Source: a virus
Lineage: Duplodnaviria > Caudoviricetes
IMG/VR virus record: IMGVR_UViG_3300032332_001516
Location: 1 to 39,183 of that record
Direction: 5' to 3' (one strand)
Length of the DNA: 39,183 nt
Part shown: positions 1 through 33,976 of the stretch, piece by piece
Layout of the letters: each line of letters begins with the position of its first letter
Numbering within the stretch: the stretch's first letter is position 1
Made by a program: the position numbers and the translations under genes
The notes under the pieces: generated by a model
Database searches by the model: none
The model's input: the letters and a program-made list of their open reading frames with translations, nothing else
What the model was told of the DNA's origin: nothing

Positions 1-180
1 CATATGCCCGGTTGCATACAGCACAGCCATCACTGGACCTGCAATATGCTCGCCAATCTCATACAGTGCCCACACAGTCAAGGCCACTGCCCACCAAGGA
101 TTGCTTTCGGCCTTGCGGCCCAGCCACATGAAGAATCTTCCATGTAGCTGTCCAATCTTGTTTGCCAGGCGGACGATCAT
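1..180 (-). CDS. partial small membrane protein (runs off window edge)
   Basis: Hand-translated: ATG at 180 overlaps the stop of 177..554 (ATGA). MIVRLANKIGQLHGRFFMWLGRKAESNPWWAVALTVWALYEIGEHIAGPVMAVLYATGHM..., open to base 1. Confidence 0.65.
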   Translation of the reverse strand, partial: MIVRLANKIGQLHGRFFMWLGRKAESNPWWAVALTVWALYEIGEHIAGPVMAVLYATGHM

Positions 181-554
181 TGTGTGTAGCAGCTACGCTC
201 TCGATAGATGCGACCATCAATAGTCAGTACCTCGCGCCACTCACCGCAAATCTGTTGTCGAATCACTGGTGCGGGTTGTACATACACAGGTTGTTGTTGA
301 ATGTACACTGGCGCGGGTGGCACATACACTGGCTGTGATTCACGTGCAATGATGGCACCTGCGATGCCACCAATGATCAACGGGGCAACCCAATTGCCGC
401 CATTCACTTGTTGGTAGCCACCGTGATGTTCGTGATGCAACTCATAGTTGCGATCGCGATTTTGGAAGGCACGATAGCGGTATTCGTCGCGATTCTCAGC
501 AAACGATACAGTTGCCACACTTGCCAAAATAACACTGATTAAGACTTTTTTCAT
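177..554 (-). CDS. exported Pro/Gln-rich protein with glycine-zipper-like segment
   Basis: Signal peptide MKKVLISVILASVATVSFA; segment WVAPLIIGGIAGAIIA; PVYV repeats; SD AAGGAG upstream; TAAATA at 573-578. Confidence 0.75.
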   Translation of the reverse strand: MKKVLISVILASVATVSFAENRDEYRYRAFQNRDRNYELHHEHHGGYQQVNGGNWVAPLIIGGIAGAIIARESQPVYVPPAPVYIQQQPVYVQPAPVIRQQICGEWREVLTIDGRIYRERSCYTQ

Positions 555-604
555 AGTAATCTCCTTACTATATATTTAACGTTTTAGACAACAGTCTAGT
601 TGAC

Positions 605-629
605 AGAAGCCCGCACCGGGCGGGCTTCT
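605..629. terminator. GC-rich hairpin, probable intrinsic terminator
   Basis: Perfect 10-bp inverted repeat AGAAGCCCGC-N5-GCGGGCTTCT just after the 647..988 gene. The U-tract is weak. Confidence 0.6.
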
Positions 630-646
630 TGTTGTGCTGCATGAAA

Positions 647-988
647 TTATGCAGTGGTTTTGACAGCAGGTGCCTTGGCAGCACGGGCCTTGATAGCTTC
701 CATGCTGGGAGCCTTGGCTTTGGCCTTGGGTGCCGACACCTTGACAGTTGCAGCGCCGTTGTACTTGGCATCGGCAGTGTCAATTGCTTCTTTGAACTCA
801 GCACGTTGATACAGGTCATTGCCCTTGAGAAACTTGACGCAGTCAGCCTTGCTCATTGCCTGGGGCAATTCCAACAGCTCAATCTCATCGTTACCAGTCT
901 TCATCAGTACCTTTACACGGCTCATGTCGTTAGCAAAACGAACTTTGAACACACCATTATTACGGCTCACGCCAGTTACTTTAAACAT
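647..988 (-). CDS. hypothetical phage protein with Lys/Ala-rich C-terminal tail (possible DNA binding)
   Basis: 113 aa ORF with SD AGGAG and its own sigma70-type promoter; tail KAKAKAPS...KARAAKAPAVK. Confidence 0.75.
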   Translation of the reverse strand: MFKVTGVSRNNGVFKVRFANDMSRVKVLMKTGNDEIELLELPQAMSKADCVKFLKGNDLYQRAEFKEAIDTADAKYNGAATVKVSAPKAKAKAPSMEAIKARAAKAPAVKTTA

Positions 989-1046
989 ATCAAATCTCCT
1001 AGTAGGAAGTGGTTGAAAAAAAATGTTGTATGTACAACATGCTCAA

Positions 1047-1075
1047 ATTATAGCTGACTTCTGGATTGAAGTCAA
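1047..1075 (-). promoter_or_regulatory. sigma70-type early promoter
   Basis: TTGACT (1070-1075), 17 bp, TATAAT (1047-1052). Confidence 0.85.
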
Positions 1076-1100
1076 CCATTTTTTGACTTGATTTGCCCAT

Positions 1101-1307
1101 TTAGTTTGCAGGATGCAGGGCAAGAACGTTACCGCGACCATAGCTGGATTCCAGCAGGCTCTTGGTACCAAAATATCCGCCAGTGTCGGGTACAGTAACG
1201 AACACGTTACGTCCTGTGGTTACTGGCACGTGTCCGCGACCTTCCACGTAGGTGGTAGCTGCGGTGGGCATTTGAACTTGTACAGTAGCACGCCATTGAG
1301 TAGTCAT
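1101..1307 (-). CDS. hypothetical protein
   Basis: 68 aa ORF with SD AGGAG 6 nt upstream. Confidence 0.7.
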   Translation of the reverse strand: MTTQWRATVQVQMPTAATTYVEGRGHVPVTTGRNVFVTVPDTGGYFGTKSLLESSYGRGNVLALHPAN

Positions 1308-1321
1308 TGCAATCTCCTAGA

Positions 1322-1468
1322 TCAATATTCAGTATTTTCGGGCAGGGTCTCTAGCACGTCATAAACCATGCTGAGCGGAATCTCCAACACTTGTGCAATA
1401 CGGGTGGGGTGATCACCTTGCTCCAGCATGAGCTCAATTTCCAAATACAGTTCTTTCATACGGCTCAT
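1322..1468 (-). CDS. small helix-turn-helix-like protein
   Basis: Start reassigned to ATG 1468 (ATGA overlap with upstream ORF, SD GGGAG). MLEQGDHPTRIAQVLEIPLSMVYDV fits an HTH pattern. Confidence 0.6.
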   Translation of the reverse strand: MSRMKELYLEIELMLEQGDHPTRIAQVLEIPLSMVYDVLETLPENTEY

Positions 1469-1584
1469 TTCATTTTCTCCCGTGTCCACTCGGATGCTGT
1501 GGTAAGGTCTTTGCCTATGCCGGATACTGTGCTGCAACCTGCAAACAGTACCAGCGCCAGGGATGCGATTACTAGTTTGATCAT
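1465..1584 (-). CDS. entericidin EcnA/B-like small lipoprotein
   Basis: Hand-translated, 39 aa: MIKLVIASLALVLFAGCSTVSGIGKDLTTASEWTREKMK. Lipobox FAGC followed by T-V-x-G-x-G-K-D; ATGA-coupled at both ends. Confidence 0.75.
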   Translation of the reverse strand: MIKLVIASLALVLFAGCSTVSGIGKDLTTASEWTREKMK

Positions 1585-2054
1585 GCTTCTTCCTTTTCGT
1601 TAGCCAATGCTTCTGTCAACAAAACCAATTTATCGCTCAGGGCTGTGTCGCTGTAGGTGTTGCCCACATACCATACACCGTCCTTCATGATGTAGTAGTA
1701 CTCGGCGTTGCACCCGTTTGCTAGATCTAGAAACTCCGCAAACGTGTGCGATACTCGGAACTCAGCACCCTTCTCGCCGCGATCACGTGCGTAGAAAGTG
1801 CAGTAGCCTGCTTCTTTGGCCGCTTCATACAAAGCCTTGTCCTCGGCACTGGTGTGCGGGCTAAATGGATGTGCTTCACCAATTACCCGACCCAGGCTGC
1901 TCATATCGCCCATGGCCACCAATTGGTTAGCTCGTGCGCTGTCATAGTGTTCTTGTAGGATAGCGCCATTGTGCGCTAGATATCCATCCCAGTGACAGTA
2001 AACGCTCTTGCACTTGTCACCATGCATCACACCAATTCGACTACGTGTACCCAT
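1581..2054 (-). CDS. conserved hypothetical phage protein (YCHWDGY motif)
   Basis: 157 aa; MGTRSRIG...SVYCHWDGY...EYYY; strong SD and own promoter. Confidence 0.8.
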   Translation of the reverse strand: MGTRSRIGVMHGDKCKSVYCHWDGYLAHNGAILQEHYDSARANQLVAMGDMSSLGRVIGEAHPFSPHTSAEDKALYEAAKEAGYCTFYARDRGEKGAEFRVSHTFAEFLDLANGCNAEYYYIMKDGVWYVGNTYSDTALSDKLVLLTEALANEKEEA

Positions 2055-2086
2055 TTTTCGACTCCTGTTTGTTGCTGTATGTGTGT

Positions 2087-2115
2087 ATTATAGCACTTTG
2101 GCAATTAATGGTCAA
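2087..2115 (-). promoter_or_regulatory. sigma70-type early promoter
   Basis: TTGACC (2110-2115), 17 bp, TATAAT (2087-2092), then leader ACAGCAACAAACAGGAGT. Confidence 0.85.
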
Positions 2116-2291
2116 CCGTTTTGTTGATTCACAAAATCCATGAGTTCACCGTAAAATTCTTCATATGCTTGTGCAGTCTCACTATCAAGAGTATCGTAAG
2201 AGTCTCCTAACATCTGTATACAATGTAAGAGACCCGGTTGACCCATTTCGCGGTGAGCGTCTGCGATAATTTGAAATGCACTTCTTGCCAT
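2112..2291 (-). CDS. small acidic hypothetical protein (59 aa)
   Basis: Hand-translated MARSAFQIIADAHREMGQPGLLHCIQMLGDSYDTLDSETAQAYEEFYGELMDFVNQQNG; SD AGGAG and own promoter. Confidence 0.75.
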   Translation of the reverse strand: MARSAFQIIADAHREMGQPGLLHCIQMLGDSYDTLDSETAQAYEEFYGELMDFVNQQNG

Positions 2292-2325
2292 TTTCTAACT
2301 CCTGTTTGTTGCTGCGTATGTATCA

Positions 2326-2354
2326 ATTATACTGGATTTTGAGTTCGCTGTCAA
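2326..2354 (-). promoter_or_regulatory. sigma70-type early promoter
   Basis: Perfect TTGACA (2349-2354), 17 bp, TATAAT (2326-2331). Confidence 0.9.
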
Positions 2355-2369
2355 CCTGTTTTTGCCAGA

Positions 2370-2588
2370 TTATGAGTAGAAACTGGTGTTGAAGCCGCGG
2401 CGTGCATACACCACTTCGCGCACAGCCGTATCTGTAAGTTCGCCATACTGCTCGCGCTTTTGGTCTGCAATGAAACGCATGAGCGCTTCAGTTTGGGGCC
2501 AGTTCAGGTTCGCTGCTTGACTCAGTTCCACGATCTTTTGTGCCACTGCATCACCAGCATCTGTGTACATGTCAAAACCTTGGTTCAT
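2370..2588 (-). CDS. hypothetical protein (72 aa)
   Basis: Start reassigned to ATG 2588 (MNQGFDMYT...), after SD AGGAG and downstream of promoter 2622-2650. Confidence 0.75.
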   Translation of the reverse strand: MNQGFDMYTDAGDAVAQKIVELSQAANLNWPQTEALMRFIADQKREQYGELTDTAVREVVYARRGFNTSFYS

Positions 2589-2621
2589 AATCGACTCCTG
2601 TTTGTTGCTGTTCATGTATGT

Positions 2622-2650
2622 ATTATAGCGTATTTCGGGCTCGCTGTCAA
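2622..2650 (-). promoter_or_regulatory. sigma70-type early promoter
   Basis: Perfect TTGACA (2645-2650), 17 bp, TATAAT (2622-2627). Confidence 0.9.
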
Positions 2651-2711
2651 CCAAAATCTGGTATTTTTCACACAAAAAGTTGCGATTTTTCTGTTGTTTT
2701 TCAGCAACAGA

Positions 2712-2867
2712 TCAGGCAAAATGTCCGCCAAACAGCATGGCATCAATAAAGATGCCCACAGCCAGCAAGACCCAAAACACCACCATGGAGTTCATCAGCA
2801 GATAAGACACCACAAACGGTCCATCTCGGCTGGCCAGTATGGATTTGATCCGATTCCACTTAGACAT
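2712..2867 (-). CDS. small membrane protein (51 aa)
   Basis: Hand-translated MSKWNRIKSILASRDGPFVVSYLLMNSMVVFWVLLAVGIFIDAMLFGGHFA; SD GGAG. Confidence 0.6.
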   Translation of the reverse strand: MSKWNRIKSILASRDGPFVVSYLLMNSMVVFWVLLAVGIFIDAMLFGGHFA

Positions 2868-2988
2868 CATCATCTCCGGTTAACATGTCAACCAATTTAG
2901 TAGCAACGAGTATGGCACCCCACAGCATAGCCAGTGCCATACACATTCCAACTGCTCCTATCAAATAAGGTTCAATGGCGTCGTACAC
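2860..2988 (-). CDS. small single-pass membrane protein (42 aa, GTG start)
   Basis: Hand-translated MYDAIEPYLIGAVGMCMALAMLWGAILVATKLVDMLTGDDDV; SD TAAGGA. Confidence 0.55.
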   Translation of the reverse strand: MYDAIEPYLIGAVGMCMALAMLWGAILVATKLVDMLTGDDDV

Positions 2989-2997
2989 AGCAGTTCC

Positions 2998-3141
2998 TTA
3001 TCCTCGCGGCTTGTTTTCAACTGCGGCCATGCTGCCGCTATAGGCGCCGTTGCTGGCAGTGTGGCGCAGCACACCAGGTGCCGGGTAGGTGATCACGCCA
3101 CCAGTGCTGGATGGTACGGGCTTGGGTGCAGTATAGTTCAT
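2998..3141 (-). CDS. small hypothetical protein (47 aa)
   Basis: Hand-translated MNYTAPKPVPSSTGGVITYPAPGVLRHTASNGAYSGSMAAVENKPRG; SD GAAAGG; promoter 3169-3197. Confidence 0.65.
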   Translation of the reverse strand: MNYTAPKPVPSSTGGVITYPAPGVLRHTASNGAYSGSMAAVENKPRG

Positions 3142-3168
3142 AGTTGCCTTTCAGTCGTTTAAAATTGT

Positions 3169-3197
3169 ATTATATACCCAAAACCATTTAATGTCAA
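3169..3197 (-). promoter_or_regulatory. sigma70-type early promoter
   Basis: TTGACA (3192-3197), 17 bp, TATAAT (3169-3174). Confidence 0.9.
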
Positions 3198-3201
3198 CCG
3201 T

Positions 3202-3429
3202 TTACGCACAGATTTCAAACAACATTTCGTTACTGGAACCGTTGACTACACGGACTTTTTTGTCATTGACCATGATGTAGCCATAGTTGCCGTTATCATA
3301 GATACCGTGTGGGCAGGATTCAATAGTCACTTTACGGACGATTTCGCAAAAGCCCCAACGCTTAGTAGGCAACTTACCTTGAAACAATCGCATGTTTTCA
3401 AGGGAAGTAATGAGAATTTTTGCTTTCAT
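3202..3429 (-). CDS. hypothetical protein (75 aa)
   Basis: ORF behind promoter 3463-3491 and a variant of the shared leader. Confidence 0.7.
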   Translation of the reverse strand: MKAKILITSLENMRLFQGKLPTKRWGFCEIVRKVTIESCPHGIYDNGNYGYIMVNDKKVRVVNGSSNEMLFEICA

Positions 3430-3462
3430 AATCTACTCTGTTTGTTGACTGTCTAAGTATGT

Positions 3463-3491
3463 ATTATATACCCAAAACCATTTAATGTCAA
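3463..3491 (-). promoter_or_regulatory. sigma70-type early promoter
   Basis: TTGACA (3486-3491), 17 bp, TATAAT (3463-3468). Confidence 0.9.
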
Positions 3492-3634
3492 GTTTGGTTA
3501 GCCTTATTTACGGCAGATTCAGCATCTTTTTTCCCTGTAGGACCGAAAAAGTGCCAAGGATATCCGTGTACTACGGCTACCCACCCGGGGGTTTTTCTAC
3601 CGTAGTACTCGCTGGCTTTCATTAAAAAAGCCAT
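3488..3634 (-). CDS. small hypothetical protein (48 aa)
   Basis: Hand-translated MAFLMKASEYYGRKTPGWVAVVHGYPWHFFGPTGKKDAESAVNKANQT; fills the gap between 3641..3916 and the next promoter. Confidence 0.5.
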   Translation of the reverse strand: MAFLMKASEYYGRKTPGWVAVVHGYPWHFFGPTGKKDAESAVNKANQT

Positions 3635-3640
3635 TTGTTG

Positions 3641-3916
3641 TCAATCCTGTTTCATCACATATTCAAACAGGACCCACTTGGCACGATTCAGGCACTGACG
3701 TGCATCTTCGGCACGGTTAAAGTCAATGTCGCCGTACTCGGTGTTGATCATCTCTTGAGCATCGCTCATCAAGCTGGCTGCAATCATTGCAGGACCCGAA
3801 AAGCGGAAAGTGATGCTGGACTCGATGCTCTCACGCATGCCAGCTTCAGTAACACCGTACATGCGAACTTGGCGTTTTTCTTGCTCGGTAAGTGCGTTGT
3901 AAGTAGCAGTTGTCAT
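3641..3916 (-). CDS. hypothetical protein (91 aa)
   Basis: ORF with SD AGGAG, the shared leader and its own promoter. Confidence 0.8.
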   Translation of the reverse strand: MTTATYNALTEQEKRQVRMYGVTEAGMRESIESSITFRFSGPAMIAASLMSDAQEMINTEYGDIDFNRAEDARQCLNRAKWVLFEYVMKQD

Positions 3917-3949
3917 TTCTAACTCCTATTTGTTGCTGTCTAAGTGTAT

Positions 3950-3978
3950 ATTATACTGCCTTTTGGGCAGATTGTCAA
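3950..3978 (-). promoter_or_regulatory. sigma70-type early promoter
   Basis: TTGACA (3973-3978), 17 bp, TATAAT (3950-3955). Confidence 0.9.
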
Positions 3979-3986
3979 CCAGAATT

Positions 3987-4006
3987 TTGTTGTATTTTTA
4001 CAACAA
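3987..4006. promoter_or_regulatory. palindromic candidate operator TTGTTGTA-N4-TACAACAA
   Basis: 8-bp inverted repeat just upstream of a -35 box; identical copy at 4396-4415. Confidence 0.55.
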
Positions 4007-4270
4007 ATCTACTTGAATTTGACGTCCGCGGATGGTAGTACCAAGTCCAGTTGGGATGTCTTTGCGATGTGCCCGGGCTAGAATGCGCTCAGCTGCTAGA
4101 GTTTCTACAGCCTCCCAGCACAGGCTGCGAGCATTGGTGGTGGCAAACTGCTCGCTCATCTGCTTGACAGTCATGTAAAAGCCAATGTCGTTTTCGCTGC
4201 CGTCACCTTTGAAGATCACGCGGAATTTTTGGGAATTTTTCAAGCCACTAACAATAGTCTGTGTACGCAT
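3998..4270 (-). CDS. hypothetical protein (90 aa)
   Basis: ORF with SD GGAG, downstream of promoter 4349-4377. Confidence 0.75.
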   Translation of the reverse strand: MRTQTIVSGLKNSQKFRVIFKGDGSENDIGFYMTVKQMSEQFATTNARSLCWEAVETLAAERILARAHRKDIPTGLGTTIRGRQIQVDLL

Positions 4271-4348
4271 CAGTTTCTCCAGTTGAATTAGATTGGGCTT
4301 ACAGTGGTGTTAACCAAATGCCGTAGCCGGTTACCTGTTTATGTGTCA

Positions 4349-4377
4349 ATTATACGAGTTTTGGGCGTGGGTGTCAA
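4349..4377 (-). promoter_or_regulatory. sigma70-type early promoter
   Basis: TTGACA (4372-4377), 17 bp, TATAAT (4349-4354). Confidence 0.9.
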
Positions 4378-4395
4378 CCAGAATCTGGACCTTTT

Positions 4396-4415
4396 TTGTT
4401 GTATTTTTACAACAA
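4396..4415. promoter_or_regulatory. palindromic candidate operator TTGTTGTA-N4-TACAACAA
   Basis: Identical to 3987-4006 and also upstream of a -35 box. Confidence 0.55.
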
Positions 4416-4421
4416 TGGTTG

Positions 4422-5132
4422 CTATTTTTTTAGGCTGAGCTGGCGGTCAATCAGGTCAGCTTCGGCTTTGCGCAGGCGATCGATCCAGCCCATGTTCCTA
4501 ATGGCTTTGAACGCAAGGTTTTCAGTGCTGAATTCGCCACCTGCATCCAGTCCGCTTTGACGCATGCGATAGAGCTGGGCCGCTGCCTGTTTGAAATCGC
4601 CAGGTACAGTGCTGCGCCTAATGGTCTTGCTGAGCAGGTCAATCATGCCCTGTGTCTTTTTCCGTACACTGACCTGGTCATAATGTGGTGGCATGAAATC
4701 GGGCTTGGTCTTCCAGCGATTGTTCTGTACCGAAAATATGCCGGCGCTGTGTGCCTGGTGCTGGATGTCCTCTACGTAGAGTTCAACATCATATCCGTAA
4801 ATGGTAATATCATGCTGATCATTCCAGATGCGTTTTTTGGCAGTGTACAGGGCCTCGGCAACATCATCACATTTGAGGTCACTGTAATCGGTCACTATGT
4901 GTAGATCAAAATCGCTGTACCGAGTGTAGTTGAAATTGGCTAAGCTGCCGGTCAAGTAAATATCCAGCAGTTTGAAATCTGGTATCTCCAGGTATTCCAC
5001 AAACAAGTCGGCCACAGCCAATAAGTGCTGGCGTACCACTGGGTTCATGTTCCAACCCTGCCATACCTGCGGATTAAGGTCCCGGTGATATTGTAGCGTG
5101 TCGCCAACTGCTGCGAGTTCTTCGGGCTTCAT
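4422..5132 (-). CDS. Pol-beta superfamily nucleotidyltransferase
   Basis: hGS...DxDh signature LTGSLANFNYTRYSDFDLHIV, with a third acidic strand YDVELYVED. Confidence 0.75.
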   Translation of the reverse strand: MKPEELAAVGDTLQYHRDLNPQVWQGWNMNPVVRQHLLAVADLFVEYLEIPDFKLLDIYLTGSLANFNYTRYSDFDLHIVTDYSDLKCDDVAEALYTAKKRIWNDQHDITIYGYDVELYVEDIQHQAHSAGIFSVQNNRWKTKPDFMPPHYDQVSVRKKTQGMIDLLSKTIRRSTVPGDFKQAAAQLYRMRQSGLDAGGEFSTENLAFKAIRNMGWIDRLRKAEADLIDRQLSLKK

Positions 5133-6196
5133 ATCCTGACTCCATCTATGCTTACTAGGCTGCCGGGTACTGTATTGGCTGGTAAAATCTCAGAGCCCAG
5201 GGGAGGTAACTGTGTGTCTCTGTGCAGATCAAATGGTTCGGTGTACGTGCCTTGATAGAATCTATAGGGAAGGTTACAGGAATTGTTCGCAGGCAAGGTG
5301 ATCACAGCCGGCACGTATTTGGTTGGCAATTGATTACGATAAGGGAATATTTTTCCAAAACCAGGCCCAGTCTGTGCTGTATAAAAGGAATTATATCTGA
5401 TGATAAGTCGCTTGCCCGATATCTTTGGTTGTCCGTGTGCCACTGTGGGCAACCCGGGGGGATTTTCTGCCGGCAAGTGCGACCAAGTGATTGATATATC
5501 GTAGCGTCCCGGTAGCGGCGGGTAAATGGAATAACTGGGCGCTGAGTCAAGATTTGTATCACTACGGCTGTTGCTGATTACCACCAGGTATCTGCCCAGA
5601 ATAGTTTCGTTTACTGAACCTGGTGGAATCACGACCGGATAAGGATCCGTACCGGCACGCCAGCTGGTATCAACAGGTGGGTTGACAAATCCCCTCAGCT
5701 GGTCTAATCGCATGGTGGCAAACCCATACACGCGATCTTGATCTTCGATGGTATATGTGATATCAACTACTGTTTCTATGGTGCTGTATACTGCGGTATC
5801 TTGCCCCTCGTAGGCATCGAAATCAAATACCACGGGATCGTATCGCTGCTCATTGGATATGCCTCGCCACTCGTCGTTGCCTTTATCATAGGGGTGATCA
5901 GCAAAAGAGTACTGGCCGACATCCAAGACATCTGTGGGCAGGTCTTGATTCCTCAACGGGAACGATGCATTTGGTATGGTTCTGTACAACAAGGTAACAG
6001 AATCGTTGGTGGCACGTACTGCTCTAAACGTGCCATTATATAGTCCAACTCCGGCGACTGTGTACAGTCCCATGGGATAATCACCACGATCAATCAATTT
6101 ACAAGGTGCATACAGCGCATTACTAAAGCGATCAAAGTGAGGGTTAGGCACACGCTCTATGTTTGGCGGTAGTCTGTAGGTAATGGAAATACTCAT
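5129..6196 (-). CDS. hypothetical late protein (Pro/Tyr-rich, possibly virion-associated)
   Basis: 355 aa ORF behind TATAAATA at 6221-6228; ATGA-coupled to the nucleotidyltransferase. Confidence 0.7.
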   Translation of the reverse strand: MSISITYRLPPNIERVPNPHFDRFSNALYAPCKLIDRGDYPMGLYTVAGVGLYNGTFRAVRATNDSVTLLYRTIPNASFPLRNQDLPTDVLDVGQYSFADHPYDKGNDEWRGISNEQRYDPVVFDFDAYEGQDTAVYSTIETVVDITYTIEDQDRVYGFATMRLDQLRGFVNPPVDTSWRAGTDPYPVVIPPGSVNETILGRYLVVISNSRSDTNLDSAPSYSIYPPLPGRYDISITWSHLPAENPPGLPTVAHGQPKISGKRLIIRYNSFYTAQTGPGFGKIFPYRNQLPTKYVPAVITLPANNSCNLPYRFYQGTYTEPFDLHRDTQLPPLGSEILPANTVPGSLVSIDGVRI

Positions 6197-6220
6197 GATT
6201 GTTGTGATCCTGCTGTTAGT

Positions 6221-6228
6221 TATTTATA
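6221..6228 (-). promoter_or_regulatory. T4-type late promoter TATAAATA
   Basis: Exact T4 gp55 consensus, intergenic, 24 nt before the ATG at 6196. Confidence 0.75.
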
Positions 6229-6239
6229 GGATCAAATTG

Positions 6240-6332
6240 ATAGTGCCACACTATGGGATTCCCGGTAGCGAATCGGGCCGTCCCAGGCAGTGGCCGCCTG
6301 CCCTCGCAACTAGTGCGGTCCTAAGGGTGTTC
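6240..6332 (-). ncRNA. candidate structured RNA (multi-stem junction), family unknown
   Basis: GC-rich intergenic segment almost entirely in adjacent hairpins closed by ACAC/GUGU. A G-U pair in one stem favours the - strand. Confidence 0.55.
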
Positions 6333-6334
6333 TA

Positions 6335-7726
6335 TTATGGTGTTGGGTCAAGTATACTCCTGCCCGCTCCCCAGATTATTCTCACAGCACCGCCACCGCC
6401 ATTGCCGCCGCCTTGGGCATACCCGGTTCGATCCCAGGTGCCTACGCCGCCCGCGCCGCCACCGCCGTAGTCGCCACCGGTTCGGGTTGTGTTGGTTCCG
6501 TCGCGGCATATTCTTGGATAGTTGGTACCAACACCACCCGGTTGGGGGTAATTGCCAGGTGGTGATCCCTCACCACCATCACCTTTGGCGGAATAATAAT
6601 AACCGGCACTGGTTCCGCAGCCCACGCCCCCGGCGGGCAAATTGCCCAGGCTGATGTTCTCTAAGTTATATAAACTAGTACCACCCCCACCACCGGCCAT
6701 GGGCACTGGATAAGTAGTATCACCTGGGTCAGCAGTGGTATCAAAGCAGCCCCCACCACCGCCTGCGCCAGCAGAGTAGGTGTAGTCGTACCAATAGTTT
6801 GCACCACCACCTCGACTCCCGTCGCTACCGTTCTGCCCACCCCCGCCGCCAGCGTAGTAGCGTCCACTGGCGCCGCCGCCGCCTTGCAACCATACCACTG
6901 TCTTTGTTCCCCCGTCCGGTACTCTCAGAATCTGAGTCGCTCCATCCCTACCAGCCCCACCGCTGTTGCCCTGGGTGAGCCTGGTGCCGTATAGGGAATA
7001 AAATGGGTAATCTCCACGGTAATAGCTGCCGGGGTAACCGGTACAACCACCGCCTGCACCCAGCAAGGCATTGGCTGTAAAATAAAATGCTTGATTGTTG
7101 TAATTTTTAATGACTGGATAGACACGCACTAGTATATTACCGGCTAAATCCGCGCCAGGGCTCCCCATAGCCACAACGTGTGCATCATATTGTGTTCGTG
7201 TATTGCTGGAAAAGACTGTGCTACGAACCATGGTTGACACCACCACATTGCCCAGTAACCGATTGCCAGGACTGGTGGTGATATCAAAGAATAAATTACT
7301 ATAAGAAATATTATCCCCAGTTATTTGAGTGGGATAGAATGGTGTGTTGGCATTGTTGTCTGCTGGTGAATAGATGATACTGGCGCCGCCCATTTTTGCA
7401 GGGATAACATTACCAGTCCGGTCAAGATAATTGCCCCAGGCGCCGCCGGCACCAACTTGGATCTTGTAAGTGGCGCCGGGAGTAACAGGGATACTGTTGC
7501 TCCACGCTAGACCACCGCCCCAGCCGCCGCCGCCACCGGTCCAGGTGTCGGTGCCCGGCAATTGTAAAACACTTTCGCCACCACCGCCGCCACCAATGCA
7601 AACTGCACAAATATTAGTGACCCCGGTGGGACAGGTCCATGAGTATGTGCCCGGTGTGGTAAAAACTGCTTCCCCGCGATTGCCCGGTGGAACCAGAGCA
7701 AAATCATTGATTACAGATATGCTCAT
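6335..7726 (-). CDS. glycine-rich tail-fibre/adhesin-like protein
   Basis: Gly-rich domain from GEAVFTTPGTYSWTCPTGVTNICAVCIGGGGGG through IPVTPG to GGGAVRIIWG, with a non-Gly insert. Confidence 0.75.
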   Translation of the reverse strand: MSISVINDFALVPPGNRGEAVFTTPGTYSWTCPTGVTNICAVCIGGGGGGESVLQLPGTDTWTGGGGGWGGGLAWSNSIPVTPGATYKIQVGAGGAWGNYLDRTGNVIPAKMGGASIIYSPADNNANTPFYPTQITGDNISYSNLFFDITTSPGNRLLGNVVVSTMVRSTVFSSNTRTQYDAHVVAMGSPGADLAGNILVRVYPVIKNYNNQAFYFTANALLGAGGGCTGYPGSYYRGDYPFYSLYGTRLTQGNSGGAGRDGATQILRVPDGGTKTVVWLQGGGGASGRYYAGGGGGQNGSDGSRGGGANYWYDYTYSAGAGGGGGCFDTTADPGDTTYPVPMAGGGGGTSLYNLENISLGNLPAGGVGCGTSAGYYYSAKGDGGEGSPPGNYPQPGGVGTNYPRICRDGTNTTRTGGDYGGGGAGGVGTWDRTGYAQGGGNGGGGAVRIIWGAGRSILDPTP

Positions 7727-14206: not shown

Positions 14207-15025
14207 CTATTCTTGTGCAGCAGCGCCGCATTTGGCTCGTTTGGCCCGAGTCAGCGCACCGTAGTCCACTGGCCATTCGGCACCAGGTGCAAGTTCGCGG
14301 GCATTTTGTGGAAAGGCAAATTTGACTCCACCTGCTTGCTCGATCTGGGCAATGGGCAAACGGAATCGGGTCAAGTCATTGCCCAAGTTCACATAGGGTT
14401 TGGTATGTGGGAACGCCCAGCCTGCAACCTCATTGGTTTGATTATTGATTACGATCTTGTAGAACCCGTGCGGAACAACAACACCTGCGCCGATTCTAGA
14501 ATCTTGCGCATCATAAACACCGCCTACATAGATGGTATAACTTTGATTGCGCTGTACTGCCCAACCACGTATGCTGGTTTCCAGCAGTTTCCAAATGCCA
14601 CGATTCAATGAGCCATGCTGTGGACTCATATTGGTCATCAAGAAACTTTCATATTCAACCTGCTGGTCCCAGCTCAAGTCGCCATCGGGACTCATGTGTC
14701 CTTTGTCGTATCCGGTGCCAGCATAGTCGTCTGGCCTAGGTCCGTTGGGTACGCTGGCGTCAGCAACAAAAGCATTGGTGCGCGGCCAGCAACCCAGTGC
14801 ATTTTGTGGCAATAATTCGTAGGTTACATACCGGGGTAATTTAGCAGCAGCATCGTATCCCACTAGATAGGCCTGACGACAAATTGGCTGTACACCTGCT
14901 GTCTGTGGGAAACCGTAAGGAGCATGTACCCGACATGTTTGCGGATCCTGCGGAGCCCGTTGTGTCCAGGCATCTGCGTCAAATGCCGCGACTGCCAGTG
15001 CTATCGAAATTAAAAACCGCTTCAT
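14207..15025 (-). CDS. exported DNA/RNA non-specific endonuclease (NucA/Serratia type)
   Basis: Signal peptide; GYDKGHM (DRGH motif), TNMSPQ, LNRGIWKLLE, VPHGFYKIV. Confidence 0.9.
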   Translation of the reverse strand: MKRFLISIALAVAAFDADAWTQRAPQDPQTCRVHAPYGFPQTAGVQPICRQAYLVGYDAAAKLPRYVTYELLPQNALGCWPRTNAFVADASVPNGPRPDDYAGTGYDKGHMSPDGDLSWDQQVEYESFLMTNMSPQHGSLNRGIWKLLETSIRGWAVQRNQSYTIYVGGVYDAQDSRIGAGVVVPHGFYKIVINNQTNEVAGWAFPHTKPYVNLGNDLTRFRLPIAQIEQAGGVKFAFPQNARELAPGAEWPVDYGALTRAKRAKCGAAAQE

Positions 15026-15064
15026 TGAATGCTCCTATAATGATATATTTATGGAGCATTCAAT
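15024..15064 (-). promoter_or_regulatory. RBS-sequestering hairpin enclosing a late promoter
   Basis: Perfect 12-bp arms ATTGAATGCTCC / GGAGCATTCAAT; the loop contains ATAAATA (15046-15052); the 3' arm holds the SD and the AT of the nuclease start codon. Confidence 0.75.
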
Positions 15065-15071
15065 TAAATCT

Positions 15072-15665
15072 CTACTTGCGTTTTTCAATAACCTTGTCAG
15101 CTAGGCCGTATGCAACTGCTTCCTCGGCACTCATAAAACGGTCACGATCCATGTCGGCTTCCAGTTCAGCATAGGTTTTGCCTGCTGTGTTGTGGTCACG
15201 ATAGATGCGAATCAGGTTCTTTTTAAGGAAAGTGATCTCTTTGTACTGGATTTCAATATCACTCTGCATGCCACGAGCACCACCTGACGGTTGATGTATC
15301 ATGTGTCTGGCATTGGGTAAGATATAGCGTTTGCCAGGAGCACCTGCCTGAGCCAGCAAACTGCCCATGCTGGCTGCTTGTCCCATAACAATAGTGCTGA
15401 CTCGCGGTTTGATATACTGCATGGTGTCGTAAATGCTCATGCCTGCTGTGACGCTGCCGCCGGGACTGCTGATATAGAACAGGATATCTGCATCAGGATT
15501 GTCGCTTTCTAGGAACAATAGCTGCGCTACCACCAGGCTGGCACTGTGATCGCTCACTTCAGTATCTAGCATGACAATGCGATCTTTAAGCAAGCGGCTA
15601 TAGAGATCATAACTGCGCTCGCCGGCACTGGTACGTTCCAGCACCATGGGTACTAAATTTGGCAT
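15072..15665 (-). CDS. clpP: ATP-dependent Clp protease proteolytic subunit
   Basis: [30 protein letters not shown] (Ser), MIHQPSGG (His), DRDRFM (Asp). Confidence 0.97.
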
Positions 15666-15692
15666 AGGTTCCTTTGTAGTTGATTACAGCTG

Positions 15693-15721
15693 ATTATAGA
15701 CTATTATAGACCTATTGTCAA
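15693..15721 (-). promoter_or_regulatory. sigma70-type promoter for clpP
   Basis: TTGACA (15716-15721), 17 bp, TATAAT (15693-15698). Confidence 0.85.
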
Positions 15722-16215
15722 CACCGTTTGAAGTCTTGATAGTGAAACCAATGTCCGTTACGGAACCAGGTCTTGAGATTCAATCCATAGTATTCAAATT
15801 GCTCGCGCCACTCAAAGAAGCTGGGTCCATGCGCACCGCTGTACATATTGGGTTCTCTACCATATAGATCTAGATGCTGCCAGCGTCCTATATCCCACTG
15901 GTATTGATGCACCATTTCGTGTGCCAGCACATTCATGAACCACTGGGCGCAAAACCATTTGTCATTGAGCTCGATATCGCACCATGATCCCGATGGCTGC
16001 TGTTCTGTATGCCAATAGCAGGTTCCCCAGGCTTTCCTGCCAGCTCGCACAGTTATCTTGGGTTTTTTCAATTGATTGTCAAAAACGTGTCGATTTATGA
16101 TCTTGTATGCGTAATTGATGTCATCGGTCCCAGGGCGAAATTGCTTGCGGCGCTGATAATGAATACCGGGCAGCGGACTTTCCATAATGGTTCTGATAGG
16201 ATTGGGTCGAGCCAT
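15718..16215 (-). CDS. SprT-like zinc metalloprotease
   Basis: INRHVFDNQL, VLAHEMVHQYQ (HExxH), downstream HGPSF; ATAAATA at 16221-16227. Confidence 0.8.
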   Translation of the reverse strand: MARPNPIRTIMESPLPGIHYQRRKQFRPGTDDINYAYKIINRHVFDNQLKKPKITVRAGRKAWGTCYWHTEQQPSGSWCDIELNDKWFCAQWFMNVLAHEMVHQYQWDIGRWQHLDLYGREPNMYSGAHGPSFFEWREQFEYYGLNLKTWFRNGHWFHYQDFKRC

Positions 16216-16277
16216 ACAAATATTTATTAGTACTGTTACAATCTGGTTAAATACAATATAACATTAAGGAGATATCA

Positions 16278-16610
16278 ATGTTCAAAGCAATCAAAGAGTT
16301 TTTCGTAGGTAAACCTGTAGAAACCCCAGCACCTTATAAAGTAGAAGCACCATGGACACATACCGAGGTCGCACCGGTAACAGCACCAATAGTTGCCGAA
16401 CCTGCTCCGGTTGTAGCCCAAGTTGCCGCAGTAACAGTGGAAACTGTTGCTACAATCGCTACAGTGGTAGCTGAGGGCTCTGCACCTGCTGCCGAAACTG
16501 CACCTGCTGCGAAACCAAAACGTGCTGCAAAGCCCATGGCACCTGCTGCTCCAAAAGCAACTGCGGCAAAGGCGCCCTCAAAGCCCAAAGCTAAATCAAA
16601 GAAGGCCTAA
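16278..16610 (+). CDS. Ala/Pro/Lys-rich low-complexity protein (histone H1-like tail)
   Basis: SD TAAGGAG; TAAATA at 16248-16253; tail AKPKRAAKP...KPKAKSKKA. Confidence 0.75.
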   Translation: MFKAIKEFFVGKPVETPAPYKVEAPWTHTEVAPVTAPIVAEPAPVVAQVAAVTVETVATIATVVAEGSAPAAETAPAAKPKRAAKPMAPAAPKATAAKAPSKPKAKSKKA

Positions 16611-17636
16611 TTGTTTAGCCTGCTCGTACAGTGCCGAGCTGGCTAAATTTTTACCTTTAGATTCGCACATGATGTCGAATCGATCTAAGAAGCTCAGAGC
16701 CCATACGTTTACTGCTGTATTCCAGTAGAAATCACTGTGGGCTCTGAGCTTCTGCTTTTTGTGTCCCGACTCTAACAGCATGGCATGATCTGGCATTACA
16801 CTAGTGACATGATCAACCAAATAATCTTCACGACTAACTGAATAATGCATAGTAGGGCGCAGACCACGCCAACTATCCACCACACGATCAACGCGACTAT
16901 CCGTTGGTGAGATATATTCCCCTTCGCGTATCCAGTGATGGTGTACATCGAGCACAATAGGAACGATATCGCTAATGCTAATGCAATCATCTAGTCCCCA
17001 TGCGTTTTCTTCGTTTTCGATTGTGATGCAATTTCTTGCTTCGGGGCTGAGTCGGGCATGTGCTCTTCGTATGCCATCAGGGCCTTCTTTACCTGATATG
17101 TGGACATTGATTTTAAGGTCCTGGAATCGTTGTCCGTAGCCCATCCAGCGAGCCATGTCTGCGTGGTATTCAAATTCTTCTATGCTCCTATCGACAATAC
17201 CAGGATTACTGCTAGCAAGAACAGTGAACTGCCCAGGATGAAAGCTAAGGCGTACACCACGGTTGCGAGCGATATCGCCAATAGATATAAAATGGCGCTC
17301 ACAATAGTCGCGAACATCACTGCGGCGCCAAAAATAACTCCAATCAGCTTGGGTATAAACAGGCAGCAGATCACTGCTAAGGCGAACCATCCTAAGATTC
17401 TCATCTAATTCTCCTACTCGATTTACTAGACGCTGTGTGGCTTCGATGTTTCGCACCATCAAATCCCACAGACGCTGTTCGGCTACATCACGTGTTTGTC
17501 GGTTCAACCAAGCACAGGTAGTTGTTCCGGTATTGTATTGCTTGCAATCGTCAGTGGCAACAATGCCTTCAACTTGCGAGGGATGATCGATCCATTTGCA
17601 TGCGAATCCTAAATTACCCAAGCGTCGAACAGTCAT
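16596..17636 (-). CDS. uvsE: UV damage repair endonuclease
   Basis: GFACK, MVRLSSDLLP, RLSFHPGQF, INVHISG, ITIENEE, VLDVHHH, RAHSD, DIMCESKGKNLA. Start set at ATG 17636, further from promoter 17668-17696 than the GTG at 17660. Confidence 0.92.
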   Translation of the reverse strand: MTVRRLGNLGFACKWIDHPSQVEGIVATDDCKQYNTGTTTCAWLNRQTRDVAEQRLWDLMVRNIEATQRLVNRVGELDENLRMVRLSSDLLPVYTQADWSYFWRRSDVRDYCERHFISIGDIARNRGVRLSFHPGQFTVLASSNPGIVDRSIEEFEYHADMARWMGYGQRFQDLKINVHISGKEGPDGIRRAHARLSPEARNCITIENEENAWGLDDCISISDIVPIVLDVHHHWIREGEYISPTDSRVDRVVDSWRGLRPTMHYSVSREDYLVDHVTSVMPDHAMLLESGHKKQKLRAHSDFYWNTAVNVWALSFLDRFDIMCESKGKNLASSALYEQAKQLGLL

Positions 17637-17667
17637 ATATTCATATCTATAATAAAGCACATACGCT

Positions 17668-20911: not shown

Positions 20912-21081
20912 ACCACTTCTTCTACAATGCCTAGTATTTCTGCCAGTATGAATAACCAGCCCACCAATGGTAGACCTGCCATGATAAGTGCAGCGCCAGC
21001 ACCGACGCGCACAGCACTCTTTGCTACGCTGACATAAAAATGTCCTTTGCTGGTGTCTCGAGGTTGTACTTCTATTTCCAT
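20908..21081 (-). CDS. small membrane protein (57 aa)
   Basis: Hand-translated MEIEVQPRDTSKGHFYVSVAKSAVRVGAGAALIMAGLPLVGWLFILAEILGIVEEVV; TAATG overlap with clpS and ATGA overlap with the next gene. Confidence 0.75.
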   Translation of the reverse strand: MEIEVQPRDTSKGHFYVSVAKSAVRVGAGAALIMAGLPLVGWLFILAEILGIVEEVV

Positions 21082-21407
21082 TATTCATCTGCCTCTAGTT
21101 TAATTTCTAACGGAAATCCGTGTCTACGTGCCAGGAAACTGACTTCAATACCTTTTTGTTCTGCCAGTTCGTATGGCATAACTGAAACCACAGCAGATCC
21201 TTCTTCATGTACTTTTTGCGTAAGGGATTCGGCAACTTCTTGCGTGAGATTGAACACACTGACTAAACTTTCAACTACAAATTCAGCAGTAGTCACTTCG
21301 TCATTGATATAGATGACCTTGAACATGCTGGGTTCTTTGATGTTGAGTTTAGGCTCAATGCGTGGTTTGATCTGACTCTTGATCAGTACTTCGGTTGCTG
21401 TTGTCAT
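21081..21407 (-). CDS. clpS: Clp protease adaptor
   Basis: PSMFKVIYINDEVTTAEFVV...VHEEGSA...ELAEQK...ARRHGFPL aligns with the ClpS core. Confidence 0.9.
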   Translation of the reverse strand: MTTATEVLIKSQIKPRIEPKLNIKEPSMFKVIYINDEVTTAEFVVESLVSVFNLTQEVAESLTQKVHEEGSAVVSVMPYELAEQKGIEVSFLARRHGFPLEIKLEADE

Positions 21408-21418
21408 ATTTGTTCCTT

Positions 21419-21441
21419 AAAAGCGGGGATTGCTCCCCGCT
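21419..21441 (-). terminator. intrinsic terminator-like hairpin between hsp20 and clpS
   Basis: AGCGGGGA-GCAA-TCCCCGCT followed by TTT. Confidence 0.65.
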
Positions 21442-21452
21442 GTTGTATTTAA

Positions 21453-21908
21453 TTAATCGCCACCGGTGATAGCGATTTTGCGAGGCTTGAGTGCGTCAGG
21501 AACCACACGCTCAAGTTTGATACGCAGCATACCATTCTTGACCACAGCATCAACTACAATCAAGTAGCTGCCCAGTGTGAACTTGCGTTCAAAACTGCGC
21601 TGGCTAATGCCGTGATACAGATATGCAACTTCATTAGTGACCGCAGCTTTTTGACCAACAATGGTCAATATATCGCCCTCAACGCTGACATCAATGTCGC
21701 TGTATTCGAAGCCGGCCACAGCAAATTCAATTGCGTATTCATTTTCGTTATACTTGACGATGTTGTATGGGGGATAGTTGCTCTGACTGGTTTGTGCATC
21801 CTGCATACGCAAGATCTCATCAAACAGGCTCTCATATCCTATTGTAAACCTGGAAAGAGGTGCAGAAAGTGGCGCAAAATCAATACGCCCTACTGTTAGT
21901 TTTGTCAT
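21453..21908 (-). CDS. ibpA: small heat shock protein Hsp20 (IbpA-like)
   Basis: YPPYNIVK, IEFAVAGF, YLYHGISQRSFERKFTL, NGMLRIKL, PRKIAI. Confidence 0.93.
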   Translation of the reverse strand: MTKLTVGRIDFAPLSAPLSRFTIGYESLFDEILRMQDAQTSQSNYPPYNIVKYNENEYAIEFAVAGFEYSDIDVSVEGDILTIVGQKAAVTNEVAYLYHGISQRSFERKFTLGSYLIVVDAVVKNGMLRIKLERVVPDALKPRKIAITGGD

Positions 21909-21913
21909 ATTTT

Positions 21914-21981
21914 TCTCCTATTAAGCAAGATGACTGGTGTGGGGCCCAAAGGCGCCCCACGGGTTTGGCACACCATGTGCC
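21914..21981 (-). promoter_or_regulatory. ROSE-like RNA thermometer in the hsp20 5' UTR
   Basis: UCUUGCU-UAAU-AGGAGA (UUGCU pairs the SD with a bulged G), preceded by hairpins at 21939-21960 and 21967-21981. Confidence 0.7.
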
Positions 21982-21984
21982 TGT

Positions 21985-23886
21985 TTAGGCTCCGGGTTTG
22001 ACTTCCGTTGCCTGAACATCTACTGGACCATCAGCTGGTGCAGATTCTGCTGCTGACTTTTCGGCAGCTTCTGCATCCGACTTGGCCTTGGTCAGTGGAC
22101 CGTAAGCCTCGTACAAGGGTGGCATACATTTTTGCATAGCATCAACTGTGCCCACTGTGACGGCTTCTTTTAACTCCTTGATTCGATCTTCCAATTTGGT
22201 CTTTTCTTCTGGAGTCAATTTATCACCATGTGCTGCCAGGTCTTTTGACACTTCATTCAAGAGACCTTCGGACATGTTTTTCTGTTCAGCAATCTCTTTT
22301 TGCAGTTTGTCACTCTCGGCATTGAGTTCGGCGTCCTTGATCATGTCTTGGATTTCTGACTCGCTCAGCCCCGAATTGGCCTTGATGGTGATGTTGTTTT
22401 GCTTGCCGGTGTTCTTGTCTGCTGCACTGACCTTTAAGATACCGTTGGCATCAATGTCCAATGTAACTTCAATTTGCGGTTGCCCACGGCGTGCTGGTGG
22501 GATGCCATCAAGATTAAATTCACCCAGCATTTTATTGTACTGGAACATCTCGCGCTCGCCTTGTGCCACCTTGATGTTCACGCTGGGTTGCCCATCTTCG
22601 GCGGTGCTGAACACTTGGCTGTGTTTAGTAGGGATAGTGGTATTCTTGGTGATCAACTTGGTGAATACCCCGCCCAGGGTTTCGATACCCAAGCTCAGTG
22701 GAGTCACGTCCAGCAACAACACATCAGTACGTCCACCGCCTAGTACATCACCTTGGATAGCAGCACCAGCAGCCACTGCTTCGTCGGGGTTGACATCTTT
22801 GCGTGGGGTCTTGCCAAACAGCTTCTCTACAGTCTCCTGTACTTTGGGCATGCGTGTCATACCACCAACCAGGATGATCTCGTCGATGTCACCGGCTGTC
22901 ACTTTGGCATCTGACATGGCAGTACGGCAAGGCTCAATACTGCGCTGGATCAATTCATCAACCAAACTTTCCAACTTGGCACGTGTCAACTTGATATTCA
23001 TGTGCTTGGGACCGCTGGCATCGGCTGTGATGTAAGGCAAGTTGACATCAGTCTGTGCCGAACTTGACAGTTCAATCTTGGCTTTTTCCGCAGCTTCCTT
23101 CAGTCGTTGCAGTGCCAACATGTCTTTCTTAAGATCAACACCGTTGTCTTTCTTAAACTCGTCAACCAAGAAGTCCATGATGCGTTGGTCAAAGTCTTCA
23201 CCGCCCAGGAATGTATCACCGTTGGTACTCAGTACCTCAATTTGTTTATCGCCATCAACGTCGGCGATTTCGATGATGCTGACGTCAAATGTACCACCAC
23301 CCAAGTCATAAACTGCAATCTTGCGATCGCGCTTGTCTGCTTTGTCCATACCATAGGCCAGTGCAGCAGCAGTGGGTTCGTTGATGATACGCTTGACATC
23401 CAAGCCAGCGATGCGGCCTGCATCTTTGGTTGCCTGACGTTGACTGTCATTGAAGTAGGCCGGTACTGTGATAACTGCTTCTGTGACTTCGTGTCCCAGA
23501 TAGTCTTCGGCAGTCTTCTTCATCTTGCGCAAGACTTCTGCTGAGATTTGTGGAGGTGCCAATCGGTCATCGTTGGCTTCGATCCAAGCGTCTCCGTTGT
23601 CGGCTTGCACGATCTTGTAAGGCATCAAGTTGATGTCTTTTTGTACAGCCTGTTCTGTGAACTTGCGCCCAATTAGGCGCTTGCTGGCATAGATTGTATT
23701 TTTGGGGTTTGTAACTGCCTGACGCTTGGCGCTGGCACCTACTAAGATTTCACCATTGGCATAAGCCACGATACTGGGAGTAGTCCTAGCACCTTCGCTG
23801 TTTTCAATGATTTTGGGGATGCCGTTTTCGATTACGGCCACGCATGAATTTGTGGTACCTAGGTCGATACCGATGATTTTGCTCAT
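21985..23886 (-). CDS. dnaK: Hsp70 chaperone
   Basis: [54 protein letters not shown]; 633 aa. Confidence 0.98.
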
Positions 23887-23889
23887 AAT

Positions 23890-23942
23890 TTCTCCTTAGT
23901 TAAGCAAGAATATGTAAGACCCCACCCGGGCATCCTACACAT
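23890..23942 (-). promoter_or_regulatory. ROSE-like RNA thermometer in the dnaK 5' UTR
   Basis: UUCUUGCUU-AACU-AAGGAGAA hairpin with bulged G, preceded by a long hairpin at about 23912-23942. Confidence 0.65.
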
Positions 23943-23943
23943 G

Positions 23944-23974
23944 TATTTATACACGATCCGTCAACTCTTGTCAA
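23944..23974 (-). promoter_or_regulatory. overlapping late (TATAAATA) and possible sigma70 promoter for dnaK
   Basis: TATAAATA at 23944-23951; TTGACA at 23969-23974 is 17 bp from TATAAA. Confidence 0.7.
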
Positions 23975-25182: not shown

Positions 25183-25504
25183 GCTTGATAAAGTATGCCA
25201 GTGGCGACAAATATTTTAAATCGTCCCCAAACCAATTTATTTTGTTGTACTGATCCAGTACCGAATGCAATGGTGCAAGATCGGTGGTACGACTTGATAT
25301 CAAAATAGTATCGACTTGATCTGCTACCTGGGATAACCATGCTGTTGCTTGCATGCCCTCATGATAAAGATACACTGTATAATCTTGTACTGATAATGGC
25401 ATCCAACGTGCCAACAACTCAATTTCAATTTGAGTGGCATTGACGATTAAACAGCCACCACTGGTCGGACCTAGATCAGGTGGGGTTATTACTTGGTTGG
25501 TCAT
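25175..25504 (-). CDS. hypothetical protein
   Basis: 109 aa ORF overlapping both neighbours in operon fashion. Confidence 0.65.
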   Translation of the reverse strand: MTNQVITPPDLGPTSGGCLIVNATQIEIELLARWMPLSVQDYTVYLYHEGMQATAWLSQVADQVDTILISSRTTDLAPLHSVLDQYNKINWFGDDLKYLSPLAYFIKHD

Positions 25505-32839: not shown

Positions 32840-33163
32840 TTATACGCTGAAACTGCTACCGCAGCCGCATGTACTTTGTGCGTTGGGATTTTTGATCACA
32901 AATTGACTGCCGCTAAGGTCTTCTCGGTAGTCAACATCTGCGCCCTGCAGGTATTGGCTACTCATGGCGTCTACTAGTACTGCCAGTCCTGCTTGTTCTA
33001 TTACAAAATCGTCTTCATTTTGTACTTCATCTAGGGTAAAACCATAGCTGAATCCACTACAACCACCACCTTGTACAAACACACGCAGGTGTATTGCTGG
33101 ATTGTTTTCCTCTGCCAGTATGTCTTTGATCTTTACTACAGCATTTTCAGTCAGGGTCATCAT
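32840..33163 (-). CDS. erpA: A-type iron-sulfur carrier (ErpA/IscA)
   Basis: [41 protein letters not shown]. Confidence 0.92.
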
Positions 33164-33938: not shown

Positions 33939-33976
33939 ACGTATATTCTCCTTAAACAACTATTTAGTAGATTATA

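Follow-up and report, generated by a model that had tools for sequence, protein, structure and literature searches.

A conserved pseudoknotted RNA element of jumbo phages with predicted complementarity to helices 69–70 of 23S rRNA

Antisense RNAs that present their recognition bases in the loops of a stable fold include CopA/CopT of plasmid R1 and RNA I/RNA II of ColE1, which are cis-encoded, are fully complementary to plasmid RNA targets, and pair by a kissing contact followed by helix extension. Short guides that pair with conserved rRNA, sometimes in two parts, occur in the box C/D and H/ACA RNAs of archaea and eukaryotes, which carry box motifs and have partner proteins, and non-modifying snoRNAs pair with pre-rRNA as chaperones. 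In Staphylococcus aureus, the small RNA SprF1 is described as binding via its purine-rich 5' end, proposed to act at the subunit interface to damp translation, and also as an antitoxin (PMC8938821); the main text of that review contains no occurrence of 'phage', '23S' or 'base pair'. Helix 69 (H69) of 23S rRNA forms an intersubunit connection, and a synthetic antisense PNA directed against it is reported to block translation in E. coli (Kulik 2017, via PMC12828698 and PMC7038079). Among phages, the PeSL cassettes of T4-like viruses are described as structured intergenic elements, often near promoters and surrounded by variable genes, that consist of an early promoter and a stem-loop and are repeated points of recombination (PMC4122927). 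Where phage take-over of ribosomes has been described, it acts through proteins (e.g., PMC10914614).

The RNA element analysed here resembles CopA and RNA I in carrying its recognition bases in the loops of a stable fold, and it could plausibly pair in the same two steps, but it is encoded apart from its putative target, has two or three pairing pieces and points at host rRNA. It shares short, two-part complementarity to conserved rRNA with the guide RNAs, but its motif fits bacterial rRNA and it matches neither family. Its likeness to SprF1 (PMC8938821) lies in the proposed action at the subunit interface and not in any known similarity of sequence or structure. Compared with the anti-H69 PNA, a man-made oligomer, it would be a natural, folded, phage-encoded counterpart aimed at the same helix. 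Like the PeSLs it is structured, intergenic and set among variable genes, but it is single-copy and pseudoknotted, with invariant rRNA-complementary loops. A phage RNA antisense to 23S helices 69–70 appears to be new, as no Rfam family and no paper corresponding to it were found; literature searches, whose coverage excluded subscription papers, returned no published description. Its motifs are absent from six of the nine supplementary files of PMC10690425, and since files 1, 2 and 4 lay outside that search the family may be present there as an unnamed candidate.

The window, the whole 39,183-nt stretch that was analysed, is a 39-kb IMG/VR fragment (estimated completeness 6%) with genes on the minus strand for collagen-like and glycine-rich fibres, DnaK, ClpP/X/S, Hsp20, superoxide dismutase (SOD) and IF-1. 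The element (nt 6245–6332, minus strand, as for all features below; about 88 nt, both ends inferred from conservation) occupies most of a 138-nt gap between a glycine-rich tail-fibre-like gene (nt 6335–7726), whose TAA ends 8 nt before the conserved 5' motif, and an unknown gene (nt 5129–6196), for whose product the search for related loci found no relative. A covariance model (R1) matched nt 6235–6337 with 89.5 bits, the window copy having belonged to its training set, and a search of the whole window gave no second match below E = 2.7. All segments named in the preliminary description are present at nt 6240–6332, and the GC-richness it reported is borne out: the element has 62% GC, compared with 26–54% in the 14 window gaps of at least 30 nt (the 138-nt gap included) and 48% for the window. 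The motif TATAAATA (nt 6221–6228), presumably a T4-type late-promoter motif, likely serves the downstream gene and is enclosed by a 6-bp inverted repeat (GATCCT/AGGATC, nt 6207–6234). The fibre-like gene and the element are likely co-transcribed, and the suggested position at the 3' end of a late transcript is probable, the element lying directly after the fibre-gene stop codon and being followed by TATAAATA. Beyond the downstream gene, nt 4422–5132 encode a PHROG 36119 protein of unknown function with a weak Pfam SidM_N match (E 4e-4, below the family cut-off) that is probably not meaningful.

The RNA had been drawn as a four-way junction closed by an ACAC/GUGU stem. On its own, the window copy of the element folds no more stably than expected by chance (z = −1.31; 16 of 200 shuffles do as well), its minimum free energy fold differs from the one drawn, and the four-way fold scores −24.7 kcal/mol against −25.2 kcal/mol for an open three-arm fold (pseudoknot left unscored). 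Since the single sequence is not unusually stable and both folds score alike, only the family can decide. The collected homologues indicate a fold of three arms, with a pseudoknot, overlooked before, that joins the middle loop to the 3' tail. In 58 members of similar length, chosen among 126 distinct cores and used to build the covariance model, the 15 named pairs are paired in 90% of cells and 14 of the 15 show changes on both sides, a level reached by none of 500 shuffles, while slid registers of the same alignment fall to 29–47%; both controls are inflated by the relatedness of the sequences. The family upholds the proposed helix in which the 5' end pairs, in CCU/AGG fashion, with the segment just before the middle arm (P1; CCCU at nt 6324–6327 with AGGG at nt 6301–6304), as the mean helix is 4.95 bp compared with 4.28 bp for swapped partners (maximum 4.49 bp in 200 swaps; 92 of 107 members parsed). 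The closing stem has no such family support (3.38 bp versus 3.34 bp when swapped) and is rejected, since the partner that covaries with the 5' end is the segment before P3 and not the tail. The junction falls with it, and the 3' tail pairs instead with the middle loop. Family covariation confirms the two 3' arms, CAGGCGG/CUGCCUG in the P3 hairpin (nt 6284–6300) and GGA..CCCG/CGGG..UCC in the P4 hairpin with its internal bulge (nt 6256–6283), and at the closing position of the P4 loop 106 of 107 members have a standard pair. In the pseudoknot, GCCAC of the P3 loop (nt 6290–6294) faces GUGGC near the 3' end (nt 6245–6249); this helix is 88% paired among the 58 members, C-rich P3 loops go with G-rich tails, and all nine members with a GGU loop have ACC in the tail. 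The P2 hairpin (nt 6305–6317) is optional, being absent from 10 of 100 segments, and the alternative 3' hairpin AUAGUG/CACUAU was found in the window copy. Judged from this covariation, the element is almost certainly a conserved structured RNA.

A first search pattern, derived from the last hairpin, returned 45 viral stretches, of which 33 belong to the family and 12 matched by chance; with wider patterns the family is estimated at about 1,000 stored IMG/VR stretches (about 890–1,200, extrapolated from 7–9 of 64 parts). Its members are related, so that counts within it are not independent events. The covariance model matched all 22 records tested (20 viral and two MAGs), with one match in 19 of the 20 viral records and two in the remaining one, which is not the multiplicity of PeSLs. 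Complete or nearly complete relatives holding the element are 339–353 kb in size, suggesting mostly one copy per jumbo phage genome of about 350 kb. In a second, weaker copy from a complete 353-kb genome (L431, G002:C1:76940-77026), P3, the pseudoknot tail and a GUCGCUAC loop are retained but the anti-1920–1930 motif is missing; this copy may have decayed or may be a paralogue directed at another target. Only two of 185,579 GTDB genomes matched, both on MAG contigs with genes resembling the phage loci; the model found two matches on separate contigs of one and a single match in the other. These phage-like contigs (L406, L407 and L430) are binned in two Bacteroidota-labelled MAGs, which may reflect mis-binning or a host link and is not taken as a host call. 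Cultured phages yielded no member: queried with the element and with one relative, blastn found nothing beyond chance-level matches (E ≥ 1) in 50,697 phage records.

The preliminary description did not recognise the RNA as a tRNA or a known riboswitch, and neither did ARAGORN or Rfam 15, in which no family reached the gathering score in the window and none E ≤ 1 in nine relative loci; the one chance match (E = 4.7) lies outside the element. The same comparison returned no known class of self-cleaving ribozyme and no box C/D or H/ACA family on the element, nor is any such box seen among the conserved columns of the alignment. A presumed resemblance to SRP Alu was dropped for want of an Rfam match. 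Compact pseudoknotted folds with invariant unpaired bases are typical of riboswitches, ribozymes and tRNA mimics, so the element might be one of these, its rRNA match (below) being incidental. A T-loop or tRNA mimic, as had been suggested, is contradicted by the lack of a conserved closing stem, by the absence of an ARAGORN match and by a 9-nt loop that is replaced in 29 of 110 members. For a switch, the downstream genes vary too much, 13 of 96 lying on the opposite strand and many having their own late promoter. The invariant bases, moreover, map to adjacent rRNA sites and in one case change with an rRNA variant, and this whole group of explanations is very improbable.

A second feature that had been overlooked is complementarity to 23S rRNA (reference, E. 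coli rrnA; numbering anchored on G1906). The conserved 5' motif CCUUAGGACCG (nt 6316–6326) is the exact antisense of 23S 1920–1930, and eight bases of the P4 loop AUUCGCUAC (nt 6265–6273) are antisense to the adjacent site, 1930–1937. Exact matches to 23S of at least 11 nt occur 39 times within the window by chance; an 11-nt match is thus ordinary, and the case rests on conservation and adjacency. Without search constraint, the first 10 nt of the motif are exact in 94 of 108 members and changed at one position in the other 14, of which seven are wobble-compatible and seven mismatched, six of the latter being U>C opposite A1928. The 22-nt 5' arm of the window copy, in which P2 carries the complementarity across the H69 loop to 1909, pairs 19 of its 22 bases with 23S 1909–1930 (−29.8 kcal/mol; next best −20.5 elsewhere in 23S and −22.2 at the best 16S site). 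P2 arms, whose sequence no search pattern fixes, add H69 pairing beyond that of shuffles in 90 of 90 distinct arms, or 82 of 90 with the first two bases held. In 48 cores anchored on GUUR, the base opposite G1910 is C or U in 47, while all four bases are evenly mixed opposite U1915. The latter fits an N3-methylated, non-pairing U1915, as in mature rRNA, but would fit an unconstrained loop position too. When the whole element was cofolded with 291 rRNA tiles, the H69–70 region ranked first (−20.2 versus −16.5 kcal/mol for the next), although a predicted lead of 3.7 kcal/mol is a modest margin. No distinct anti-16S partner RNA stood out among the exact matches of at least 11 nt in the window, and an apparent match between the P3 loop and the 16S 530 loop was set aside, the bases concerned being those that covary with the 3' tail. 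The element sequence thus displays what marks a trans-encoded antisense sRNA, an exposed, conserved seed complementary to a target, and the RNA probably pairs with 23S rRNA.

The 9-nt P4 loop is replaced by other sequences in 29 of 110 members. Without search constraint, the 110 segments comprised 78 with UCGCUA, three with CCGCUA, 23 with GUCGUGCC, four with CGCCAUUC and two with CCGGGAAU. The best 23S site of the UCGCUA loop is 1930–1937 and that of the CGCCAUUC loop is 1968–1976, whereas CCGCUA, GUCGUGCC and CCGGGAAU form only 6 bp in this part of 23S and score better elsewhere. The second commonest loop, GUCGUGCC, forms its 6 bp at 1964–1969 but does better at 23S 2544–2552 and 16S 846–855.

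Covariation between motif and target is hard to see because the target is nearly invariant, 23S 1906–1930 being identical in all 28 Bacteroidota copies parsed. A search with the antisense of an actinomycete H69 variant gave one match (L462, G083:C1:23940-23981), the 5' motif of which is the exact antisense of the variant present in named Streptomyces and Arthrobacter records; two metagenome 23S loci with this variant have Actinomycetota as nearest relatives. L462 presents the 9-nt loop of the family on a perfect 14-bp stem and has 68% GC, but it is without P3 and the pseudoknot and reaches no better than E = 0.06–0.18 with the model. The first 8 kb of its contig match 11 phage records, 10 of them with Actinomycetota hosts. 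Each motif type favours its own target (−18.9 versus −15.2 and −20.3 versus −12.0), and nine of the ten matches of a looser scan for further actinomycete-type variants did not have such an architecture. The 5' motif thus seems to have changed to match a host rRNA variant in a single, unreplicated case (n = 1), an actinophage-like contig. This simpler, two-arm version lies behind an endolysin-like gene, and the contig also encodes a queuine tRNA-ribosyltransferase-like protein. In four Bacteroidota genomes (G025, G058, G036 and G031), the 23S matches are split near 1920–1932, with about 710 nt inserted at the split in G025 and G058. The inserts are likely group I introns, located close to the point at which the two guide segments adjoin.

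Among related loci, the upstream gene is co-oriented with the element in 89 of 96 and the downstream gene is on the opposite strand in 13 of 96. In RNAalifold pairs, which were predicted on the gene strand, G-U cells outnumber A-C cells by 97 to 16 (39 to 16 without an invariant pair), and both this excess and the co-oriented upstream genes favour the gene strand. The opposite strand could otherwise be the working RNA, an rRNA-sense decoy for an H69/H70-binding factor or ribonuclease, as identity to rRNA is the same fact on the other strand, an H69 hairpin is formed either way, and the A1928-facing variants fit neither reading well. This is the least probable explanation considered: G-U pairs, gene orientation and upstream late promoters all point to the gene strand, and in the decoy the rRNA pieces would be permuted, with the H70 strand in a loop and not in its native helix.

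The neighbouring genes vary among loci, so the link to fibre genes seen in the window does not extend to the family: 192 neighbours fall into 81 clusters, and include (Pfam run on 70 chosen neighbours) ferritin, dCMP deaminase, nucleases, SHMT, terminase, radical SAM and many unknowns. One 86-aa regulator-like gene recurs downstream in 26 of 97 loci, mostly 48–75 nt away. The spacing to the upstream gene is tight. In 68 of 97 loci a stop codon ends 0–22 nt ahead of the motif; in four it ends 23–60 nt ahead, in 16 inside the element (15 at the motif's own UAG, one in an ORF reaching further in), and nine have none near. For 83 of the 97 the end falls in the stretch from 22 nt upstream of the motif to 6 nt inside it. 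L462 likewise has a stop codon 4 nt before its motif. The late-promoter motif TAAATA lies just downstream of the element in 28 of 97 loci, compared with 1.3% of background tiles, and within 40 nt upstream in 14 of 197, in 12 of these with no intervening ATG. Such a context would suit an RNA gene squeezed into the ends of transcripts, and it would suit a cis role at termination as well. A cis-acting 3'-UTR element could capture the released 50S subunit via H69 after termination, with effects on recycling, re-initiation or mRNA stability. The stop codon positions suit this, as do three stand-alone copies (L004, L020 and L062) in which a late promoter is followed by a tiny ATG–stop frame (three codons, or start and stop only) and then the element. 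The tight spacing may, however, be simple compaction, as gaps below 20 nt are normal in the window (17 of 31). A cis function is improbable given also that the element occurs once per genome beside unrelated genes, and that in L139, L210 and L362 a late promoter precedes the element by 9 nt, with no ATG.

Late 50S intermediates of B. subtilis are described as having H68, H69 and H71 unformed (PMC9638911), and from this, together with inhibition by the anti-H69 PNA (PMC7038079, PMC12828698), binding to 50S subunits apart from 30S and a block of maturation or joining can be inferred. Transcription of the element would follow the gene strand, either from a late promoter of its own or within a late mRNA whose 3' end it forms, and the pseudoknot would protect the 3' end. 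On a 50S subunit with the H69–H71 region unfolded or exposed, the P2 loop would contact the H69 loop first, the 5' arm would then invade 1909–1930, and the P4 loop would bind the next 23S strand at 1930–1937, or at 1968–1976 in some relatives. The outcome would be a block on 50S maturation or subunit joining that keeps 50S out of 70S ribosomes. The phage might thereby, as a guess, halt the making of new host ribosomes, divert rRNA to decay late in infection or free nucleotides. As conserved, exposed bases are complementary to the subunit-joining region of 23S, direct binding of host rRNA by a phage RNA is likely. The more specific reading, that a late small RNA pairs with H69–70 in immature or free 50S and prevents 30S joining, has slightly better than an even chance of being correct. 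If pairing occurs, an inhibitory outcome is more likely than not, although late inhibition of ribosomes is hard to square with a phage that encodes IF-1 and itself depends on translation.

All of the complementarity evidence applies equally to a helpful outcome of the same pairing, in which the RNA would act as a chaperone that folds H69–H71, a shield that masks the region from a host ribonuclease in an abortive defence, or a guide that brings an enzyme of phage or host to the 1930/1931 junction. Two guide segments that abut at 1930, as in a bipartite guide, and a phage that encodes IF-1, DnaK, Hsp20 and ClpP/X and needs ribosomes late in infection fit such a role. It is unlikely, though less so than a cis function, as no enzyme gene is conserved next to the element (192 neighbours in 81 clusters), no box C/D or H/ACA family matches, and a 19-bp duplex over both strands of H69 would seem too stable for a transient chaperone without a helicase. 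Should a phage RNA indeed pair directly with the intersubunit core of 23S, phages would have a hitherto undescribed way of controlling the host. The RNA would amount to a natural RNA 'antibiotic' or 50S assembly factor needing no protein for targeting, and, as a natural version of anti-H69 antisense drugs, would be a ready probe of late 50S assembly and recycling. As the target is nearly invariant across bacteria, the 90-nt RNA could be tested at once on E. coli ribosomes without phage culture. Large phages of unrelated hosts likely encode folded RNAs that would control the host ribosome through H69–H70 pairing by two or three loops, retuned to the host rRNA.

Other parts of the window show features of their own. 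At nt 1–4400, repeated cassettes carry a TTGAC-type −35 element, about 17 nt, a TATAAT-type −10 element and a near-identical leader ending in AGGAG, each preceding a small gene, a pattern typical of a phage early region with repeated promoters. A cluster of host-like helper genes (nt 21081–25182, 14207–17660 and 32840–33959) encodes ClpS, Hsp20, DnaK, ClpX and ClpP, as well as UvdE, a non-specific nuclease, an IscA-like protein, Fe/Mn SOD and IF-1. The DnaK protein is 68–70% identical to proteobacterial-type records and about 57% to those of the Firmicutes type, which is a weak hint at the phage host. The TAAATA late-promoter motif is found 4–6 nt before the start codons of the genes at nt 15718–16215, 25476–27230 and 33977–34819, and in many related loci, which suggests that late mRNAs in this phage group may be leaderless.
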